Shown here piece after piece: positions 10,518-20,924 of a stretch of DNA of 64,000 bases. The DNA comes from Bryobacteraceae bacterium. GTDB taxonomy: Bacteria; Acidobacteriota; Terriglobia; Bryobacterales; Bryobacteraceae. The stretch spans positions 48,754 to 112,753 of the forward strand of contig JAWKHI010000018.1 of assembly GCA_041394885.1 (NCBI GenBank), written 5' to 3'. The position numbers were made by a program, and so were the translations under genes. The notes beneath the pieces are model-generated. The model ran no database searches and was not told where the DNA came from. It was given only the letters and a program-made list of their open reading frames with translations. Each line of letters starts with the position of its first letter. Within the stretch, counting starts at the first letter, position 1.

Positions 10518-10615
10518 TCACGGTTGAGCGGGGAGTTTTCACCGATCGTAACGAAAACGTCAGCTTTCTGACGTTGTGTCGAAACCTTGGTGTCATACAC
10601 TCCTTTCTTTCAACC

Positions 10616-12478
10616 ATGCGCAAAACCATTCTGTTTTTCTCGCTAGCATCGGTCTGCCTGCACGCGCAGGTCAAGGTGAATTTTCTGGGGGCCTATGCCG
10701 GCGGCGGCGCCGCGGCCTCTGAGATTTCCGCCTACGACCCTGGATCGCGCCGGACCTTCGTCACCAACGGCGCCACCAAGAAGATCGACATCCTCGATGT
10801 GTCCAATCCCACCGCGCCCACCAAGGCCGGTGAGATTACGATTCCGTCGCAGTTCGGCGACGCGCCCAACAGCGTGGCGGTGCGCAACGGCGTAGTCGCC
10901 GTGGCAATGGCCGCCTCGCCCACCCAGAACCCCGGCTACGCCGTTTTCTTCGATGCCCAAGGCCGGCTGCTCAGCGGCGTGCAAGTGGGCGCGCTACCGG
11001 ACATGATCACCTTCACCCCCGACGGCAAGTACGTCCTGGTGGCCAATGAAGGCGAACCGAACGATTCCTACTCGATCGACCCGGAAGGCTCGGTCAGCAT
11101 CATCGACCTCGCCAACGGCGCCGCAAACCTGACGAACGCCGATGTGGCCACCGCGGACTTCAAGGCTTTCACCAAGAACAACATCGACCCGCGCATCCGC
11201 ATCTTCGGACCCAACGCCACCGTCGCGCAGGACCTCGAGCCCGAGTACATCGCCGTGTCGCCGGACTCGAAAACCGCCTGGGTTTCGCTTCAGGAAAACA
11301 ACGCATTCGCCATTATCGACATCGCCGCGAAGAAGGTCACCCGCCTCGTCGCGCTCGGCTTCAAGGACCACAGCGCGGCCGGCAACGGCCTCGACCCGTC
11401 TGACCGTGACGGCGGCATCAAGATTGCCCGCTGGCCCGTGCTCGGCATGTACATGCCCGACGCTATCGGCACATTTACCACTCGCGGAGTCACCTATCTG
11501 ATCAGCGCCAACGAGGGAGATACGCGCGACTACGCCGGGTTCAGCGAAGAAGCTCGCGTATCGTCACTCAAGCTCAGCCCCCGCGTGTTCCCCAATGCGA
11601 AGGATCTGCAGGCCAACGGCGCGCTCGGACGCCTCACGGTCAGCAACGCTTCCGGCGACGACGCCGGCGACGGGGTCTACGAGAGCATCATGCTTCCTGG
11701 CGCCCGTTCGTTTTCGATCTGGAGCACCGATGGGCAGTTGGTGTTCGATAGCGGTGACCGGTTCGAGCAAGTGACCGCGCGCGCCGTGCCCAAGGCGTTC
11801 AACTCCAACGGCGCCGAGGACACCTTTGACACCCGCAGCGACAACAAGGGACCCGAGCCCGAGGGCGTGGTCACGGCGACCATCGGAGACCAGACGTTCG
11901 CCTTTATCTCGCTCGAACGCACCGGCGGCTTCTTCGTGTATGAAGTGACCGACCCGCGCCGCGCCGAATTCATCCGCTATGTCGCCCCCCGCGCCGGGGC
12001 CGACGGCAAACCGCTCGACGTCTCGCCGGAAGGCATCGCCTACGTGGCCGCGGCGGACAGCCCCAACGGAAAGCCGATGCTGATCCTGTCCCACGAAGTG
12101 AGCGGCACCACGTCGTTCTACGAGTTCGCCGTAACTCCCGAAGTAACTTCGCGTGTGGAAGTAACTAACTTCGGAGTGGTGACCGCTTCCGGCGCAGGCC
12201 CGTTCGGCCAGGTTCAGCGGACCTACAAAGCCGCGATGAACGTCCGGAACACCACGGCGGACACCATCGCGGGGCCGCTGCAACTCGTCTTCACCGGGCT
12301 TCCAGCGGGCGTGACCGTGGCGGGCTCCACCACCAGCATCGAAGCCGGGCAGGTGCTCGCGATTCCCGGCGTTTCGTCGCTCGGCGGCGGCGCTTCGCAG
12401 AACTTCACCGTGGAGTTCGACAATCCCGCCGGCGCGGCGATTACGTTCGGTGCGCGGGTCTATAGCGGGAGCTTCTAG
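10616..12478 (+). CDS. secreted choice-of-anchor-I-like beta-propeller protein
   Basis: Lies in ORF 10574..12478. ATG 10616 gives the signal peptide MRKTILFFSLASVCLHAQ. GALPDMITFTPDGKYVLVANEGEPNDSYSIDPEGSVSIIDL matches my recollection of that family. Confidence 0.6.
   Translation: MRKTILFFSLASVCLHAQVKVNFLGAYAGGGAAASEISAYDPGSRRTFVTNGATKKIDILDVSNPTAPTKAGEITIPSQFGDAPNSVAVRNGVVAVAMAASPTQNPGYAVFFDAQGRLLSGVQVGALPDMITFTPDGKYVLVANEGEPNDSYSIDPEGSVSIIDLANGAANLTNADVATADFKAFTKNNIDPRIRIFGPNATVAQDLEPEYIAVSPDSKTAWVSLQENNAFAIIDIAAKKVTRLVALGFKDHSAAGNGLDPSDRDGGIKIARWPVLGMYMPDAIGTFTTRGVTYLISANEGDTRDYAGFSEEARVSSLKLSPRVFPNAKDLQANGALGRLTVSNASGDDAGDGVYESIMLPGARSFSIWSTDGQLVFDSGDRFEQVTARAVPKAFNSNGAEDTFDTRSDNKGPEPEGVVTATIGDQTFAFISLERTGGFFVYEVTDPRRAEFIRYVAPRAGADGKPLDVSPEGIAYVAAADSPNGKPMLILSHEVSGTTSFYEFAVTPEVTSRVEVTNFGVVTASGAGPFGQVQRTYKAAMNVRNTTADTIAGPLQLVFTGLPAGVTVAGSTTSIEAGQVLAIPGVSSLGGGASQNFTVEFDNPAGAAITFGARVYSGSF
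12421..12478. repeat. direct repeat copy 1 (the last 19 codons of the 10616..12478 gene, including the TAG stop)
   Basis: 54 of 58 nt are identical to 13197..13254 by hand alignment. Confidence 0.9.
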
Positions 12479-13178: not shown

Positions 13179-13196
13179 CCGAGCGGTAGCGCTCGC

Positions 13197-13254
13197 CAAT
13201 CCCGGCGGCGCGGCGATTCCGTTCGGTGCGCGGGTCTACAGCGGGAGCTTCCAG
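13197..13254. repeat. direct repeat copy 2 (relic of the 3' end of the choice-of-anchor-like gene; the stop has changed TAG to CAG)
   Basis: Translates as NPGGAAIPFGARVYSGSFQ versus NPAGAAITFGARVYSGSF* in copy 1. Confidence 0.9.
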
Positions 13255-14378: not shown

Positions 14379-14783
14379 TCAACTGGCCGAAAGCACTTCG
14401 AATCCCCGCCCGCCGCGTAGAGCGCGGGCAAACGTCACAGTGGACGCCGCTCCGGCGCGCGCATTGGCTCGTCCGATATAGTAATCCGCAAAGTCACCGC
14501 GGCCGCCGGTCCAGTCCCCGAATGCTTGCCAGACCGTCTCCTTGTCCACGACTTCGAATTGCGCCGTTCGCAAGATACGTTCGATGACGGTGTTGATGTC
14601 GCCCTTGCGGAATCCATAGCAGTCTTCCAATACCCAGATCAGTTCGCAGATCACCACCGGCTGGATCACCAGGCGCACGCCCGACTCAGCCGCTTGCCCG
14701 ATCACCCGATTCGCCTGGGCAGCCTGCCGCGGGTCATCCTGCGTCAGGTACCGGACGAGGACGTTGGTGTCCAGGCCTTTCAC
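14379..14783 (-). CDS. vapC: PIN-domain toxin (VapC family)
   Basis: MKGLDTNVLVRYLTQDD has the canonical PIN N-terminus. 134 aa. Overlaps the upstream antitoxin by 4 nt. Confidence 0.85.
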   Translation of the reverse strand: MKGLDTNVLVRYLTQDDPRQAAQANRVIGQAAESGVRLVIQPVVICELIWVLEDCYGFRKGDINTVIERILRTAQFEVVDKETVWQAFGDWTGGRGDFADYYIGRANARAGAASTVTFARALRGGRGFEVLSAS

Positions 14784-15040
14784 CCCTTCCGTCCACGGGC
14801 CTTCGCGCCCGCCCGCCGCCGGACCGCCTCATGCATCGTCTCCACCGGCACCGCCGCCTGGCCCGAACGCGCAAGCGCTCCCTGCAAGCTACGGACATCC
14901 ACCTTCGCCGGGCGGATCTGCACGTCGCCGCTATCGAGCACCACGAAATCGAGTTGGTCCCCCGGGTGGAGTCCGAGGTGGTCGCGGATCGGCTTTGGGA
15001 TCACCAGTTGGCCCTTCACCGTCAGTGTTGCGGTATGCAT
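14780..15040 (-). CDS. AbrB/MazE/SpoVT-type antitoxin
   Basis: LTVKGQLVIPKPIRDHLGLHPGDQLDFVV is the swapped-hairpin AbrB-fold signature. Confidence 0.8.
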   Translation of the reverse strand: MHTATLTVKGQLVIPKPIRDHLGLHPGDQLDFVVLDSGDVQIRPAKVDVRSLQGALARSGQAAVPVETMHEAVRRRAGAKARGRKG

Positions 15041-15166: not shown

Positions 15167-17755
15167 ATGTCTTCGGAGCGCGACTCGGTCACGTTACTGC
15201 ACCTGTCCGACACTCAGTTCGGGCGTAACCACCGGTTCGGCAATCTTGGCGTAACTCCTCAGGATGGTGCGTTCGATACCTTGTTCAAGCGGCTGGAAAT
15301 CGATCTGGCGGGGCTGAAGAAAGAGCACGACGTCGTGCCGGAAGCCGTGGTGGTGACCGGCGATCTGGCGGAGTGGGGCCGGACGAGCGAGGTCCAGGAC
15401 GTTCTCGAGTTCCTGGCGCGGCTTTCGGATCCGCTGGGCGTTCCACGGTCGCACGTGGCGATCGTTCCGGGGAACCACGACATCAATCGCGCCAACTGCA
15501 CGGCGTACTTTGCAGAATGCGAGGGCAACGAGACCAAGCCCATGCCGCCCTATTGGCCGAAGTGGAAGCATTACGCGTGGATGTTCGAGGAGTTTTATCG
15601 CGGTGTCGACGGCGTGTCGTTCCGGGAAGGCGAGCCGTGGACGCTTTGGGAGATGCCGGAACTTCGGCTGGTGGTGGCCGGACTGAATTCGACGATGGTG
15701 GAGAGCCATGTTGACGGCACCCACTACGGATGGGCGGGCGAAGCCCAATTGCGGTGGTTCCATGAGCGCATGGACCGGTATGAACGCGCCGCATGGACGC
15801 GGCTGGGGTTGATCCATCACAACGTGCTGCGCAAGGCCGTGGACGACGATGAAAACCTGCACGATGCAGAGAAGCTCGAACAGATACTTGCCCCGTCGCT
15901 CGATCTTCTTCTGCACGGGCACACCCACAACGGCAAGATGGGACGGCTGGACAAGCTCCCGGTGCTGTCCACGGGAAGCACGGCGTTGCAGTCCGGCCAG
16001 CGGCCGGCGGAGGTGCCGAATCAATATCAGTGCCTGCGGCTGTCGGCGGATGGGATCGAGCGTTGGACGCGTGGGTACGATCCGCAGCGGGGCGACTGGA
16101 TCGGCGACAATCGGTCTTCGCGGCGCGGCGGCGAGTGGTTCACGAAAGAGAAGGTAGCGTTTCCGGCGTTTGGGAACTCCAGCGCGCCCGCGCCGCCCAA
16201 GCCGCTGCACGACCCTCGCCGGTACATCCAGGCGCTACTCGAGGAGACCTCCTACATCGACGTGCAGGGGCTGAAGTTCGGCGACAACCGGGCGTATCAA
16301 TTCGCCATCGAGGAGTTCTATATCCCGTTGACGACGTCCGCGGGCAGCGCGCAAACTGGCGACAAGCCGGAAGCATCGCGCGAACGCGAGGTCCCGTTAG
16401 TGGACGCGCTCCGGTCGCATCGCAAGCTGCTGGTGGTGGGCGACCCGGGTTCCGGCAAGAGCACGTTCCTGAAACGAGTGACGCACCAGATGTGCCGCGA
16501 ATATGGCGACGCCGCGCCGCTGCCGGTGGCGATGGGCGCGGCGGCGCTGGCCGGCCATATCGCGCTGCATCATGGGAAAGACGGTCCGGCTGAGCGGTGG
16601 TCCCCGGACTGGATTCCGCTGTACGCGGCAGCGCATTGCGCGGAGCGCAACCGGGGCCTGGACGCGGAATACTTTCGGGAGAGACTGAAGTCCGGCGGCT
16701 GTCACGTGCTGATCGACGGATTGGACGAGACTCCGGACGAAGCGTCGCGCGTGAACATGGCGCACCTGATTCGCGATGCGGCGGCGGCGTTCGACGGGTG
16801 CCGGTTCGTGGTGACGTCGCGCCCGGAGGGGAAGGTGGCGATACGCGGCTTCGAGGAAGCTCTGATCGGGGAGGTGCAGCCGGCGGAAATGCTGGCGTAC
16901 CTCGAGAAACTGGCAAGGCATCTGTACGCCAGCGATCCGGTGAAGGAGACGAGGTTTCGCCAGGATCTGGCGGCGGCCGTGAACGGGCGTCGCGAGATCC
17001 GGAAGATGACGCGGAATCCGGTGATGCTGACGGCGCTGGCGGTGCTGCAACACAACGAAGTGAAGCTGCCGGAGAATCGGGTGGATCTGTACGGGTCCAT
17101 TCTGGAGTGGCTGTCGAAGCAGCGAGCGAGGAAGGACCGTTTGCCGGCCACCGAGTGCCTGTTGCGGCTGCGGGAGTTGGCGCTGGCGATGCAGGATCAT
17201 GAGGACGGCCGCCAGAAGCAGGCGCCGGTGGCCTGGGCGGGCGAGACTCTGGCTCGGCACTTCGGGAATCGCGAAAGGGCGGAGCGGTTCCTGCGCGCCG
17301 AGCAGGCCGATAGCGGGATCGTGGTGAGCCGTGGAACCGACATCGCTTATTGGCACCTGACGTTTCAGGAGTATCTGGCGGCGCTCGAGATTGCGGGATG
17401 GGAGGACGGCGATCAGCACGCGCTCATCCTGGGCGGGGAGCCGGCGGCCAGGGCCGCGCTCCTTAACGCCCCAAAAAATTCCCGCCTGATCCAGCCCCCC
17501 GCATCGCGTCAAACGGCCGGCGTGATAGTCGCCGCACAACTTGCGAAGACGCCGGCGGAAGCGGACTACATTGGCGCGTGCCAGCCGGGCGTGCGTGGGG
17601 AACAGGCGGAATCCGAGGAACGGGAACCCGTCGCAGCAGCGGTAGACACGGCTCTTACCGGGGTGCAGCGTAAGGCGCAACCCGTAAAGGAATTCGCGAT
17701 CCGATCGTGCATGTCGTTGAGTTGCGGCTTGCTATCGGCGAACAGGAGAAGGTGA
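15167..17755 (+). CDS. metallophosphoesterase-NACHT (STAND NTPase) protein; recognisable sequence ends near 17440 and the last ~105 codons of the ORF read antisense through an RT fragment
   Basis: All five calcineurin-like motifs are present: LHLSDTQFG, VTGDLAEWG, VPGNHD, LIHHNVL, LHGHTHNG. Then Walker A VVGDPGSGKST, a Walker B-like HVLIDGLDE and a NACHT-type helical region. Confidence 0.75.
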   Translation: MSSERDSVTLLHLSDTQFGRNHRFGNLGVTPQDGAFDTLFKRLEIDLAGLKKEHDVVPEAVVVTGDLAEWGRTSEVQDVLEFLARLSDPLGVPRSHVAIVPGNHDINRANCTAYFAECEGNETKPMPPYWPKWKHYAWMFEEFYRGVDGVSFREGEPWTLWEMPELRLVVAGLNSTMVESHVDGTHYGWAGEAQLRWFHERMDRYERAAWTRLGLIHHNVLRKAVDDDENLHDAEKLEQILAPSLDLLLHGHTHNGKMGRLDKLPVLSTGSTALQSGQRPAEVPNQYQCLRLSADGIERWTRGYDPQRGDWIGDNRSSRRGGEWFTKEKVAFPAFGNSSAPAPPKPLHDPRRYIQALLEETSYIDVQGLKFGDNRAYQFAIEEFYIPLTTSAGSAQTGDKPEASREREVPLVDALRSHRKLLVVGDPGSGKSTFLKRVTHQMCREYGDAAPLPVAMGAAALAGHIALHHGKDGPAERWSPDWIPLYAAAHCAERNRGLDAEYFRERLKSGGCHVLIDGLDETPDEASRVNMAHLIRDAAAAFDGCRFVVTSRPEGKVAIRGFEEALIGEVQPAEMLAYLEKLARHLYASDPVKETRFRQDLAAAVNGRREIRKMTRNPVMLTALAVLQHNEVKLPENRVDLYGSILEWLSKQRARKDRLPATECLLRLRELALAMQDHEDGRQKQAPVAWAGETLARHFGNRERAERFLRAEQADSGIVVSRGTDIAYWHLTFQEYLAALEIAGWEDGDQHALILGGEPAARAALLNAPKNSRLIQPPASRQTAGVIVAAQLAKTPAEADYIGACQPGVRGEQAESEEREPVAAAVDTALTGVQRKAQPVKEFAIRSCMSLSCGLLSANRRR
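17470..17751 (-). pseudogene. C-terminal fragment of a DGR-type reverse transcriptase (starts just after the YxDD box; one frameshift near 17685)
   Basis: Two frames in the ORF track join as LLLFADSKPQLNDMHDRIANSFTG / LRLTLHPGKSRVYRCCDGFPFLGFRLFPTHARLARANVVRFRRRLRKL. The lower boundary is uncertain (17440-17505). Confidence 0.65.
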
Positions 17756-17790
17756 GTGGGCCCGGGGAATCTCACCCCGAGCCCCTCGCA

Positions 17791-17824
17791 GAACCGTACG
17801 TGAGCGTCTCCGCTCATACGGCTC
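17791..17824 (-). ncRNA. group II intron domain V
   Basis: The minus strand reads GAGCCGTATGAGCG-GAGA-CGCTCACGTACGGTTC. It has the AGC catalytic triad, a 2-nt AC bulge, a GNRA tetraloop and is 34 nt long. Confidence 0.85.
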
Positions 17825-18390
17825 CCATCACAGAACCGCGTCTTTCTCCCATATGCCAGTGCGCCCACAACTTCGGATCGCGTCTCGAGATCGTCGCGAT
17901 CCATTGCGCCGCCCTCCGCATTTGCCGCCTGAGGCTCTTGTACTTCCTTGAGGCCCAGCGCGCCAGCGTTCGGTCCAGTTACTTCATCGCCGGATACAGT
18001 GCCGAGCGGTAATACCGCCCGTAGTATTGGATCCACCCTCGAACCACCGGGTGAACATCCGGGACAGATCGTCCAGATCCTTGTCGCTGCGCAGATGCAG
18101 CTTCCAGCTCCGGATCTCTGCCCGAATCTTCCGGACCGCTTTATCCGACACGGCCGGACTGAAGTTGACGAAGTACTTCCCCTTCCAGTTCTTCGATCTC
18201 CGAGGCCGAAATGTGTACCCCAGAAAATCGAACTTCTCGTGCAGGTATGTCCTTCGCCGGTCATCATCCTTGCAATAGACGATCTTCGTCTTGTCCGGAT
18301 GTAGCTCCAGCCGGCAATCTCGCATCCGCGCTTCCAGTTCTCCCTGCGACGTGTTGGAGAATAACTCCGGCTGGCAGGCATTAGGTACAA
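17814..18390 (-). pseudogene. group II intron-encoded reverse transcriptase/maturase remnant (5'-truncated, one frameshift, one in-frame TAA)
   Basis: RLELHPDKTKIVYCKDDDRRRTYLHEKFDFLGYTFRPR...DLSRMF, then a frame change to NPVVRGWIQYYGRYYRSALYPAMK*LDRTLARWASRKYKSLR...DPKLWAHW. The TAA is at 17979..17981. Confidence 0.8.
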
Positions 18391-18413
18391 TCACGGTTCC
18401 ATAGGAGGCAAAT

Positions 18414-20924
18414 ATGCATCGCCCACACTTCCTGGGGGCCATCTGGCTGCTCTACGCCGGCGCTGCCGCAGCCCAGCCGCCGCTGAACTGCACGGCCCAG
18501 GCCGCGGGGACGCCTCAGATCCGCTCGGAAGGCGTTTCCGAACTCGTCGGCGACATCCTGATCATCTGCAGCAGCGGAAGCCCGGCAGGCCCAGTAGAAC
18601 AACTCCGGTTGCTTGACATCCTAGTGACAACCAGTTCATCGATCGACATCACGGGTCGCATCGGTCCGGATGGCCAACTGACCGAGGCATTGGCGTTCTT
18701 CGACGAGCCAATGCCCAGTCTTCAGCATCCCTGCGGGAGCCCATCCGCTCCCTACTCAATTCCGCCGGGCTCGGGTTCACTGCTACCTGGAGTGTGCGGT
18801 GCTCACGCGGGGTCGCCCTCCGGCAATGGAATCGGCGCCTATGATCCCAGTATCAATGCTCCTATTCTTACGGTTGGCGCCACAACCTATCAGACCCACC
18901 GTGCCAATGCATTTCAGGCTCGCCGTCTCACGAGTAACACGATCGTTTGGAAAAGCGTACCGTTCGACGATCCAGGCATCCTCAGCACCCGCATCATCCG
19001 GTTGACTAACTTGCGCGTCAACGCAAGTCAACTCGGTGTGCCGCTGGGGCAGCAGGCCGTTGTCCAGACGATCATTACCGCGATCCCCAGCACGGGTGGC
19101 CCTGTCCCTGTTACGAATAACGCCCCGACCGTCGCCATCGCCCAGCCGGGTGTGTCATTCGCGGTGGTTGACAAGCCTACCTGTTTGCAGTCAAACCCGG
19201 CCAACGCCGCCTTCGCTGCGTCAGCGGTGAATCCACTGACAGCGCTCGGCAGCCGGTGCGACGGAAGGGCCGCGTTGCTACGCTTCGAGGAATACTTCCC
19301 GTCGGCGTTCAAACGGCGCGCTTGGGACCCGAGCCAGGCCATCGATGTTCCAGGCCAGCCCACCTCACAGGATGTTCTCGGGTATCCCTTCTTCACCGAA
19401 TCCGGCATCTTCAAAGCCGCGACTTCCAGTTTCTGGCCGGCGACCCTGCAAAACGGCCAACCCGCGGCTGGCACGGCGCCCGGCACTCTCGGCTTGGCGG
19501 ATTCGGCAACGCGGCTAGTGGTGCGATTTCAGAACATCCAGAACGGGGTAGCGGTATGGCTGGGTACGAGCGTGCCCATCTACACATCGGCCAGCCCCGC
19601 CGTCCGCACCGGAACCGCGCGCCTCGTCCAGACCGATGCTAACGGCGCGGGCGAGTTCAACGTAATTAGTCCTGGCGCTTCACCGGCCAATTTCCGCACC
19701 GTCTCGAGTGTAACTCCGATCCCGCCAGGCTACGATAATGACGGGCTCCATCGCCTGACAGTCTCCGCCGGGGCAGGCTACGCGGTCTACGAACTGGTGC
19801 ACGCCGATACCACCCAACTGGAACGGGTGGACATCCCGGTGGTGTTTGCCTACGCCTCGAACCCCGGCGCGAACCTGCCCTCGTTCGGCACCGCCACCGT
19901 GAGCGGCGCCCTGGGCCCGGCCAGTGCGATCGCGTCTGCCAGCGCCACCGCTCCGCTGCCGCGCTTTGTCGACAGCGGCGCGGCGGCACCTGTGCTGACC
20001 ATCACCAGTGCGGGCATGCCGTCGCCGCGGCCTCCCTCGCCCACCTCCGGCGCGGGCCTCGCGCAGACGTTCACTTTCCAGTTCGACGATGCCGACGGCG
20101 CGGGCGATCTTTCCGTGCTCAACGTCCTGATCAACAACGCCATCGACGGCCGCCAGTCCTGTTACATCGCCTACGTGCCCTCAGGCCCCGGCACCGGGAC
20201 GATGTTCCTGGTGAATGACGCCGGCGACGCCGGGGGACCGTTCGCGGGCGCGCTCGCGATCCCGAGCACGGCCTCCATCGGCAATTCGCAATGCCAGATT
20301 CACGGCACGGGATCGTCCGCGTCCTTCTCAGGCGCGCGGCTCGCGCTCGCTTTGAACGTCACCTTCGCCGGAACCTACGCTGGCCGCCGAATCGTGTATC
20401 AAGCCGCGCGAGACCGGGCGGGCAACAACTCGGGATGGGTGGCCAAAGGAGTCTGGACGGTTCCCGGCGCAGCGCCCACTTCTCCGCGTGTCGACGCATC
20501 CACGCCGCCGCGCACCGAGGCGTCGACGTTCACGCTGACGACGACTTTCACCGACGACGATGGCTTCGCGGATTTGGGCGTGCTGAACATCCTAGTGAAC
20601 AATGCCGTCGATGGGCGACAGGCCTGCTACGCCGCGTTCGTGCGGTCTGCCAACACGCTCGTGCTGGTCAACGACGCCGGTGACGCCGGAGGACCGTTCG
20701 CGGGGTCGATCGCCATCCCGGGCGGATCGAACGCGTCCAACAGCCAATGCCGGATTGACGCGAGCGGGTCCGTGGTGGGGAGCGCCGGAAAATCCATTTT
20801 CCTGACGCTTCGCTTCACTTTCTTCGCGCCGTTCCGCGGCGACCGGATCGTTTACGCGGCGGCCCGGGATACGGTTGAGAACTCCTCCGGTTGGCAGGCC
20901 ATCGGGACGGTGACGGTTCCCTAG
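18414..20924 (+). CDS. large secreted hypothetical protein with two tandem ~133-aa C-terminal domains
   Basis: 836-aa ORF with GGAGG 7 nt upstream and the signal peptide FLGAIWLLYAGAAAAQ. Internal repeats at 20067..20465 and 20526..20921. Confidence 0.75.
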   Translation: MHRPHFLGAIWLLYAGAAAAQPPLNCTAQAAGTPQIRSEGVSELVGDILIICSSGSPAGPVEQLRLLDILVTTSSSIDITGRIGPDGQLTEALAFFDEPMPSLQHPCGSPSAPYSIPPGSGSLLPGVCGAHAGSPSGNGIGAYDPSINAPILTVGATTYQTHRANAFQARRLTSNTIVWKSVPFDDPGILSTRIIRLTNLRVNASQLGVPLGQQAVVQTIITAIPSTGGPVPVTNNAPTVAIAQPGVSFAVVDKPTCLQSNPANAAFAASAVNPLTALGSRCDGRAALLRFEEYFPSAFKRRAWDPSQAIDVPGQPTSQDVLGYPFFTESGIFKAATSSFWPATLQNGQPAAGTAPGTLGLADSATRLVVRFQNIQNGVAVWLGTSVPIYTSASPAVRTGTARLVQTDANGAGEFNVISPGASPANFRTVSSVTPIPPGYDNDGLHRLTVSAGAGYAVYELVHADTTQLERVDIPVVFAYASNPGANLPSFGTATVSGALGPASAIASASATAPLPRFVDSGAAAPVLTITSAGMPSPRPPSPTSGAGLAQTFTFQFDDADGAGDLSVLNVLINNAIDGRQSCYIAYVPSGPGTGTMFLVNDAGDAGGPFAGALAIPSTASIGNSQCQIHGTGSSASFSGARLALALNVTFAGTYAGRRIVYQAARDRAGNNSGWVAKGVWTVPGAAPTSPRVDASTPPRTEASTFTLTTTFTDDDGFADLGVLNILVNNAVDGRQACYAAFVRSANTLVLVNDAGDAGGPFAGSIAIPGGSNASNSQCRIDASGSVVGSAGKSIFLTLRFTFFAPFRGDRIVYAAARDTVENSSGWQAIGTVTVP

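Follow-up and report, generated by a model that had tools for sequence, protein, structure and literature searches.

Evidence that a mobile group II intron inserted at the catalytic codons of a reverse transcriptase gene of a diversity-generating retroelement, both now decayed, in an acidobacterium

Some group II introns use the active-site codons of reverse transcriptase (RT) genes as their homing site. According to Tourasse & Kolsto 2008 (PMC2504315), B.th.I3 of Bacillus thuringiensis sv. israelensis interrupts the active-site codons (AGGTATGCTGATGACT, RYADD) of an RT that is retron-like and not encoded by an intron, and M.a.I5, UA.I3 and P.l.I2 share its specificity and form twintrons. Because RYADD homing was described in 2008 (PMC2504315) and has been repeated in reviews, the kind of element reported here is already known. 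Homing into these codons is a published property of the intron lineage, which lowers the novelty of our observation, and it is the host, the RT of a diversity-generating retroelement (DGR), that appears to be new as far as we could find. No report of a DGR RT as an intron host turned up in the literature we searched, a search outside which many subscription papers fall, and neither the Wu 2018 DGR survey nor the Trichodesmium paper mentions intron-interrupted DGR RTs. Here we examine 64,000 nucleotides of contig JAWKHI010000018.1 from a Bryobacteraceae bacterium (the window), whose minus strand carries the 3' part of a group II intron followed directly by a piece of a DGR RT gene. An original prediction had read this arrangement as a 5'-truncated intron with domains V and VI (D5 and D6), a decayed maturase and a DGR-type 3' exon; its main points survive and only details were off. 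We consider it very probable that a mobile intron entered a chromosomal DGR of this Bryobacterales-like acidobacterium at the active-site codons of the RT, and that both then decayed. Loci and proteins found in our searches are cited by our own labels (L and P numbers).

The sole Rfam match in the window is to the group II intron D5/D6 model RF00029 at 17826..17751 (−), which spans the full model length and scores 60 bits (gathering score 40; E = 2.8e-9). The 76 nt involved fold with −49.6 kcal/mol (z = −6.6), and none of 200 shuffles folds as well. In this alignment and fold, D5 occupies 17791..17824 (−), a 34-nt element with an AGC triad, a 2-nt bulge and a GAGA tetraloop, and D6 occupies 17751..17787 (−), consisting of a 13-bp helix (17754..17787) with a bulged branch-point A at 17757 and a 3-nt tail, ACC (17753..17751). 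The canonical 34-nt D5 that had been proposed at 17824..17791 is therefore recovered by the covariance-model search that had been suggested as a check, and the 13-bp D6 helix with its bulged A at 17757 is reproduced in the fold.

The D5 sequence is identical in L001, L009 and L010. An exact D5 search of species-representative genomes returned two loci, one of them a complete intron in a Bryobacteraceae metagenome-assembled genome (MAG), L009, where it runs from 975 to 2836 (1862 nt) and matches the D1–D4 model RF01999 at 115 bits. By blastn the window aligns with L009 positions 2241-2838 (598 nt, one gap) at 93.5% identity, and its similarity to the complete intron begins at about 18346, equivalent to intron position ~1267. 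Neither D1–D4, for which there is no Rfam match anywhere in the 64 kb, nor a 5' GUGYG end is present in the window. From this alignment and its starting point, the window keeps only the last 596 nt or so of a ~1862-nt intron (17751..18346, −), and the first ~1266 nt, comprising D1–D3 and the 5' part of D4 with the open reading frame (ORF), are missing. The copy is therefore a fragment, unable to splice. The 5' truncation had been foreseen; its breakpoint had been placed at 18375-18395, which is 30-50 nt away from the point where homology starts.

Within the same interval, the remnant of the intron-encoded protein (17814..18346, −) retains RT motifs 6-7 and the X/maturase domain. It matches GIIM (PF08388) at 1.6e-17 and positions 233-352/353 of the group II RT/maturase model TIGR04416 at 3.6e-25; the TIGR04416 score, 88.8 bits, stays under the model's 300-bit whole-protein cut-off because the protein is truncated. 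The protein is read as a composite of three frames (...ELEARMRDCRLELHPDKTKIVYCKDDD...FDFLGYTFRPR...NPVVRGWIQYYGRYYRSALYPAMK*LDRTLARW...LWAHWHMGERRGSV). One frameshift lies near 18055, at the lone gap relative to L009, and an in-frame TAA at 17981..17979 (−) stands where intact relatives have CAA, so that the single frameshift and single TAA described beforehand are both borne out by the L009 comparison and the domain matches. The natural TGA stop (17814..17816) falls within D5, right after the X domain. There is no endonuclease domain, as befits a lineage of ~1.8 kb introns whose proteins lack one. The Rfam, folding, GIIM and TIGR04416 results indicate that the intron and maturase features are real, far beyond chance.

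Directly downstream of the intron lies the second exon of the host gene, represented by a fragment at 17517..17750 (−) that corresponds to residues ~232-314 of a 355-aa RT. It begins at the second nucleotide of the codon after YVDD (FLLFADSK...), keeps about 78 codons and contains at least one frameshift, near 17695. Its closest full-length relative, the RT of L128, a Bryobacteraceae MAG, shares 76% identity with it over residues 232-314; the fragment is also 86% identical in nucleotides to L001 and matches the phage RT family phrog_1423 (2.1e-14). In L128 the 355-aa RT is accompanied by Avd and by a 125-nt pair of template repeat (TR) and variable repeat (VR) in which every mismatch falls at a TR adenine, and bAvd adjoins the RT in L002, L005 and L208. 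On the strength of the L128 identity, the phrog_1423 match and the bAvd neighbours, the host gene is, by homology, a DGR RT. The protein database holds 23 homologues of the fragment, all 92-179 aa long; three of them (P0002, P0004 and P0011) open with translated intron D5/D6, and P0001 is uninterrupted through ...YVRYVDDLLLFADSK.

The fragment might instead derive from another RT class, namely a group II intron (making the arrangement a twintron), a retron or a UG/DRT defence RT. Most members of the intron lineage do sit in group II intron RTs and some in UG4 RTs, and the only NCBIfam match of the fragment is a weak one to a group II RT model (6e-6). We nevertheless regard a non-DGR host as improbable, since the nearest full-length relative (76%) lies beside Avd and a TR/VR pair mutated at adenines, the fragment has no GIIM domain, its relatives contain the motifs LGNQTSQFFANVYL and SWIGHAMHGDTW, and the convergent neighbour is orthologous to a NACHT plus FGE-sulfatase DGR target.

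Separately, DGR RT genes of this family show internal deletions, frameshifts or TGA for TGG (L002 at ~1330-1365 and 1810, L208 at ~2565), and many copies of the family, with or without the intron, seem to be decaying. The TR-containing cassette of ~300 nt downstream of the RT is inverted in L001 (505-800) relative to L002 (1903-2190), L006 and L128.

Given a truncated intron next to a truncated exon, the junction itself requires scrutiny. The same D6/exon 3' junction as in the window occurs in L001, an independent metagenome contig, and in protein P0002. Beyond the exon, L001 continues into a TR and a convergent target gene with NACHT plus FGE-sulfatase domains, TR and VR differing at TR adenines with one exception. 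A metagenome scan for YVDD|intron junctions found a single locus, L208, which supplies the complementary 5' junction: an RT reading ...YVRYVDD is interrupted at cgc tac gtg gat gac t|GTGCGCCACGAGG (in longer form t|GTGCGCCACGAGGCGCGAAGGGCC; TAC GTG GAT GAC T|GTGCG), by an intron 5' end near-identical to that of L009, in a locus with a target gene bearing an FGE-type VR, Avd and RT. In L005 a diverged intron, with other D5 and D6 sequences and an intact 482-aa reading frame for its protein, interrupts a more distant DGR RT at this very position, and bAvd comes next. Uninterrupted relatives (L002 and L128) read through as YVDD-FLLF, providing the intact orthologues of the host RT that had been called for. 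Cumulatively, the L001 3' junction, the L208 5' junction and the diverged intron at the same place in L005 argue that the junction is a genuine, recurrent insertion site of the intron in the YxDD codons of a DGR RT, as had been proposed.

The original prediction had itself named the opposite outcome, a deletion scar: the intron once sat elsewhere and a deletion happened to join its 3' end to the LLFADSK codons. The locus has evidently been hit by deletions on both sides, and in L006 a deletion joins the N-terminus of Avd to the RT within 3-4 nt of this point. A scar nevertheless appears highly improbable in view of the identical D6/exon junction in L001 and P0002, the complementary 5' junction in L208, the diverged intron in L005 and the fit of the site to the exon-binding sites (EBS1 and EBS2) of the intron lineage. 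As for the fusion, it is found in three independent assemblies (L006-L008; L006 52-130), where the Avd N-terminus runs in frame into the RT at gct tat g|ac ttt ctc. We considered it as a second event at the intron site and set it aside as a microhomology-type deletion whose end lies 3-4 nt upstream, probably coincidental.

With insertion favoured, the splice site can be placed by comparison. In 20 distinct complete introns the 5' exon ends in GAY GAY N and the intron starts with GTGYG, and the host frame is restored only if the final C of ...ACTCACC or ...ACTCGAC is counted as intron. On that count the ACTCGAC variants terminate in the canonical AY; the Rfam alignment likewise stops at 17751, and the branch A lies at −7. 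From frame restoration, the AY ends, the Rfam end and the branch position, the 3' splice site most likely lies at 17751|17750, so that the intron would end in ...CCCACTCACC with 17751 as its last nucleotide, one nucleotide beyond the end at 17752 first proposed. Exon 2 then starts TT CTC CTG..., its first codon, F, being divided by the intron (T|TT), and splicing would yield a protein with YVDD-FLLFADSK, like L128. The residues after the splice site had been given as LLLFADSKPQL; they are indeed the RT stretch that follows YxDD, only the first residue changing from L to F.

How the intron recognizes its site is suggested by the alignment of D1, which brings out a hairpin loop, AGUCGUU, and a single-stranded GCGUA. 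EBS1 (5'-AGUCGU) is predicted to pair with exon positions −6..−1 (A-Y-G-A-Y-U) and EBS2 (5'-GCGUA) with −13..−9 (U-A-Y-G-C/U). For EBS1, pairing holds in 18/18 introns at −6..−3, 17/18 at −2 and 15/18 at −1; for the intron-binding site IBS2, it holds in 20/20 at four of the five positions. The EBS2 assignment is supported by three compensatory changes, AUGUA with FMDD (TTT ATG) in L083, GCGUU with AACGC in L033 and GCAUA with TATGC in L076. G residues stand opposite the wobble positions of the Tyr codon and of the two Asp codons, the unpaired gap takes in the unconstrained wobble position of the Ala/Val codon, and Val (GUN) is accepted via G-U. Since G thus faces synonymous third positions and the Ala/Val wobble is unpaired, any Y-A/V-D-D coding sequence could be a target. 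The DGR sites, TACGT/ATGACT, pair at every position with G-U allowed, and IBS1 and IBS2 coincide with the RT active-site codons, the 3' junction being seen in the window and the 5' junction in L208.

Two other readings of D1 were dropped. EBS1 as a simple reverse complement of GAYGAY (RTCRTC) gave nothing consistent, AGUCGU having emerged from the alignment, and a conserved GGGAYGAY element directly 3' of EBS2, which resembled a same-sense copy of IBS1 in a comparison of two introns, did not track the exon across the 20.

Several points weigh against the reading of an intron that homed into a DGR RT. Both the 5' junction and the EBS/IBS pairing are taken from relatives, the window copy lacking D1–D4 and exon 1. 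An intron end at 17751 gives a non-canonical ...CC terminus instead of AY; the alternative is a 3' end at 17752 with an extra C ahead of GTGCG at the 5' end. The likeness to B.th.I3, M.a.I5 and P.l.I2 rests on published descriptions, 58-67% identity being given for the named introns in the 2008 paper (PMC2504315). Finally, the intron is absent from all 80 of the DGR RT loci most closely related among species-representative genomes, and about 60 of them visibly read through the site, implying that DGR invasion is rare or occasional.

The lineage itself is widespread. Scanning with a degenerate D5 pattern gave at least 119 loci from many phyla, including Acidobacteriota, Gammaproteobacteria, Desulfobacterota, Actinomycetota, Nitrospirota and rhizobial plasmids, with pSymA of Sinorhizobium meliloti as a cultured example. 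The 20 distinct complete introns are 1838-1895 nt long (about 1.87 kb); all follow GAY GAY N, which in most is preceded by TAY/TTY GCN. Among the matches listed, RT motif 6 continues in frame directly after the junction in at least 59 of 100 distinct 3' exons, GIIM is present in 18 of 24 representative hosts, which are hence twintrons, and the hosts of DGR type are those of the window, L001, L005 and L078. An exact-pattern scan for the B.th.I3 target junction returned three other, unrelated MAGs and no Bacillus. In the phage collection one match to the intron-encoded protein exceeded 50% identity (53.5%), a related intron in a non-RT context, the other 25 records being more distant RTs.

Other members of the lineage show further variety. 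In L041, L083, L094, L122 (Paraglaciecola sp.) and L017 the intron follows FMDD/YMDD of a UG4-type RT (PADLOC RT_UG4, 4.6e-32), and in these UG4-hosted introns EBS2 has changed from GCGUA to AUGUA, matching ATG in place of GCN. Self-invasion is seen in L061, L075 and L084, where the host RT is the intron-encoded protein of the same lineage (...HCRTKREAEE...LFAHW). ORF-less mini-derivatives occur in L070 (6124-7751), L103, L061 (1098-1771), L042, L075, L084 and L114; some have their 5' junction just 566 nt upstream of D5, and others form head-to-tail arrays with a D5 every 796 or 638 nt, in which the ACTCGAC end is followed at once by GTGTGCCACGA. Ectopic copies lie in non-RT genes in L050 (a sulfatase, FADD) and L033 (AACGCCGACGACT, with the compensating EBS2 GCGUU), both at GCN GAY GAY N sites, and in three Solirubrobacterales genomes (L047/L053/L085), each time with the same 3' exon, ...DLGRSTTHRYA....

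Both flanks of the window locus bear the marks of deletion. On one side, an 85-nt scar or filler (17432..17516; blastn and blastn-short against L001) stands in place of ~1.57 kb of L001 comprising the 3' end of the RT, the TR, a spacer and the half of the target gene with FGE-sulfatase and VR; a 17-nt island within it (17444..17460) equals the sequence found directly after the RT stop codon in relatives. Past the filler, and convergent with the RT, is a metallophosphoesterase-NACHT ORF (15167..17755, +; Pfam Metallophos and NACHT) that is the orthologue of the L001 DGR target. Window 17431..16220 aligns by blastn to L001 1922-3123 at 74%, and target homology ends at 17431. The L001 target has NACHT plus FGE-sulfatase; the window ORF has no Pfam match to the FGE-sulfatase (variable) domain, and its last ~108 codons run antisense through the RT fragment to a stop within D6. 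On the other side, an unrelated 836-aa gene, whose start is 68 nt past the intron breakpoint, delimits the 5' deletion at its far end. By sequence and ORF list its ribosome-binding site and start codon lie at 18403..18416 (+), with AGGAGG at 18403-18408 and ATG at 18414, and its product has no Pfam domain. A promoter as well as a ribosome-binding site had been expected near the breakpoint; the latter is there, and our search for a sigma-70-like promoter for this gene found none. The window contains no TR, VR, Avd or RT exon 1: a search for the 3' end that TR and VR conserve, allowing as many as 3 mismatches, yielded nothing, nor was there a suitable repeat. A TR/VR pair and Avd are both present in the relatives L128 and L001.

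Could the remnant still work, either by supplying the 3' half of a trans-splicing (split) intron, so that a functional DGR RT is restored, or by serving the 836-aa gene as a regulatory leader? Its D5/D6 are structurally perfect, and it adjoins the region upstream of the gene starting at 18414. However, the maturase carries a frameshift and a stop, exon 2 is frameshifted and cut at residue ~314, TR, VR, Avd and RT exon 1 are not in the window, and D5/D6 lie on the strand opposite the 836-aa gene, for which no promoter-like site was found. A working remnant is thus hardly credible, and the window copies of the intron and of its host RT are dead, with nothing functional today; the locus is the relic of a retroelement that was parasitic on a second one.

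The comparisons above establish what the parts are, where the intron inserted, how the pairing runs and which deletions occurred, and a history of insertion, deletions and decay, in that order, would account for them. An endonuclease-less group II intron would have retrohomed into a DGR RT gene after the first nucleotide of the codon following YVDD, its target chosen by RNA-DNA pairing of EBS1 and EBS2 with the R-Y-A/V-D-D codons; retrohoming was presumably primed at the replication fork, as in other introns that lack an endonuclease. One deletion would then have removed the first ~1266 nt of the intron, RT exon 1 and upstream material (Avd in relatives), and another the 3' end of the RT, the TR and, from the convergent NACHT target, the C-terminal domain that bears the VR. 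The leftovers would subsequently have gathered frameshifts and a stop codon.

A PIN-domain toxin (PF01850) and a MazE/AbrB-type antitoxin (PF04014) at 14379..15040 (−) sit immediately upstream of the metallophosphoesterase-NACHT ORF, and the neighbourhood formed by these genes and the NACHT ORF looks like a small defence or mobile island. Farther off, a 69-nt direct repeat (88% identity) occurs at 12410-12478 and 13186-13254. A choice-of-anchor-I gene (10574..12478) ends in the first copy; the second, 776 nt downstream, is a non-coding leftover, which makes the repeat a partial duplication.

With this locus, DGR RTs join the prey of introns that home to RT active-site codons. It is tempting, though in our judgement rather doubtful, to see RYADD-homing introns as generalist hunters of RT genes of any family (those of introns, of their own family, of DGRs and of UG4 type) whose repeated invasion of DGRs is a natural route to silencing and decay; if this were true, repeated invasion would silence DGRs, which would then decay. 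The arrangement explains why many short "hypothetical" RT fragments in metagenome catalogues start with translated D5/D6, and DGR or RT finders built around a single ORF will overlook such genes or split them. The pairing scheme offers a testable account of how one intron targets a protein motif across gene families. Practical value is modest, and the window copy is of less interest than the lineage-wide pattern.

Compared with known systems, the host fragment belongs to the same RT family as BPP-1-type DGRs, which consist of RT, Avd, TR and a VR in a target of C-type-lectin/FGE-sulfatase fold. Its close relatives have the complete DGR set, their TR and VR differing specifically at adenines and their targets being of NACHT or FGE-sulfatase type; unlike a BPP-1-type DGR, the window keeps only ~78 RT codons and a target without its variable domain, and is no longer a DGR. 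The inner introns of T. elongatus (PMC2882425) likewise use the conserved sequence of another mobile element as a perpetual homing site, but they insert between two start codons in domain IV instead of YADD codons and are of class CL/IIB1. Closer is B.th.I3, which by its published description (PMC2504315) resembles the window lineage in having active-site codons as IBS1/IBS2, a length of ~1.8 kb and no endonuclease domain. B.th.I3 is full length in a retron-like host, whereas the window holds a 596-nt pseudogenised fragment in a DGR RT (YVDD). M.a.I5/UA.I3 (Methanosarcina, uncultured archaeon) and P.l.I2 (Photorhabdus) are described in two papers (PMC2504315, PMC4424553) as having the same target specificity and general build. 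Like them, the relatives found here are mostly nested in group II intron RT genes, those of their own family included. The host of M.a.I5/UA.I3/P.l.I2 is the RT of another intron and not of a DGR, and the relatives found here are far more widely spread than the four published cases.

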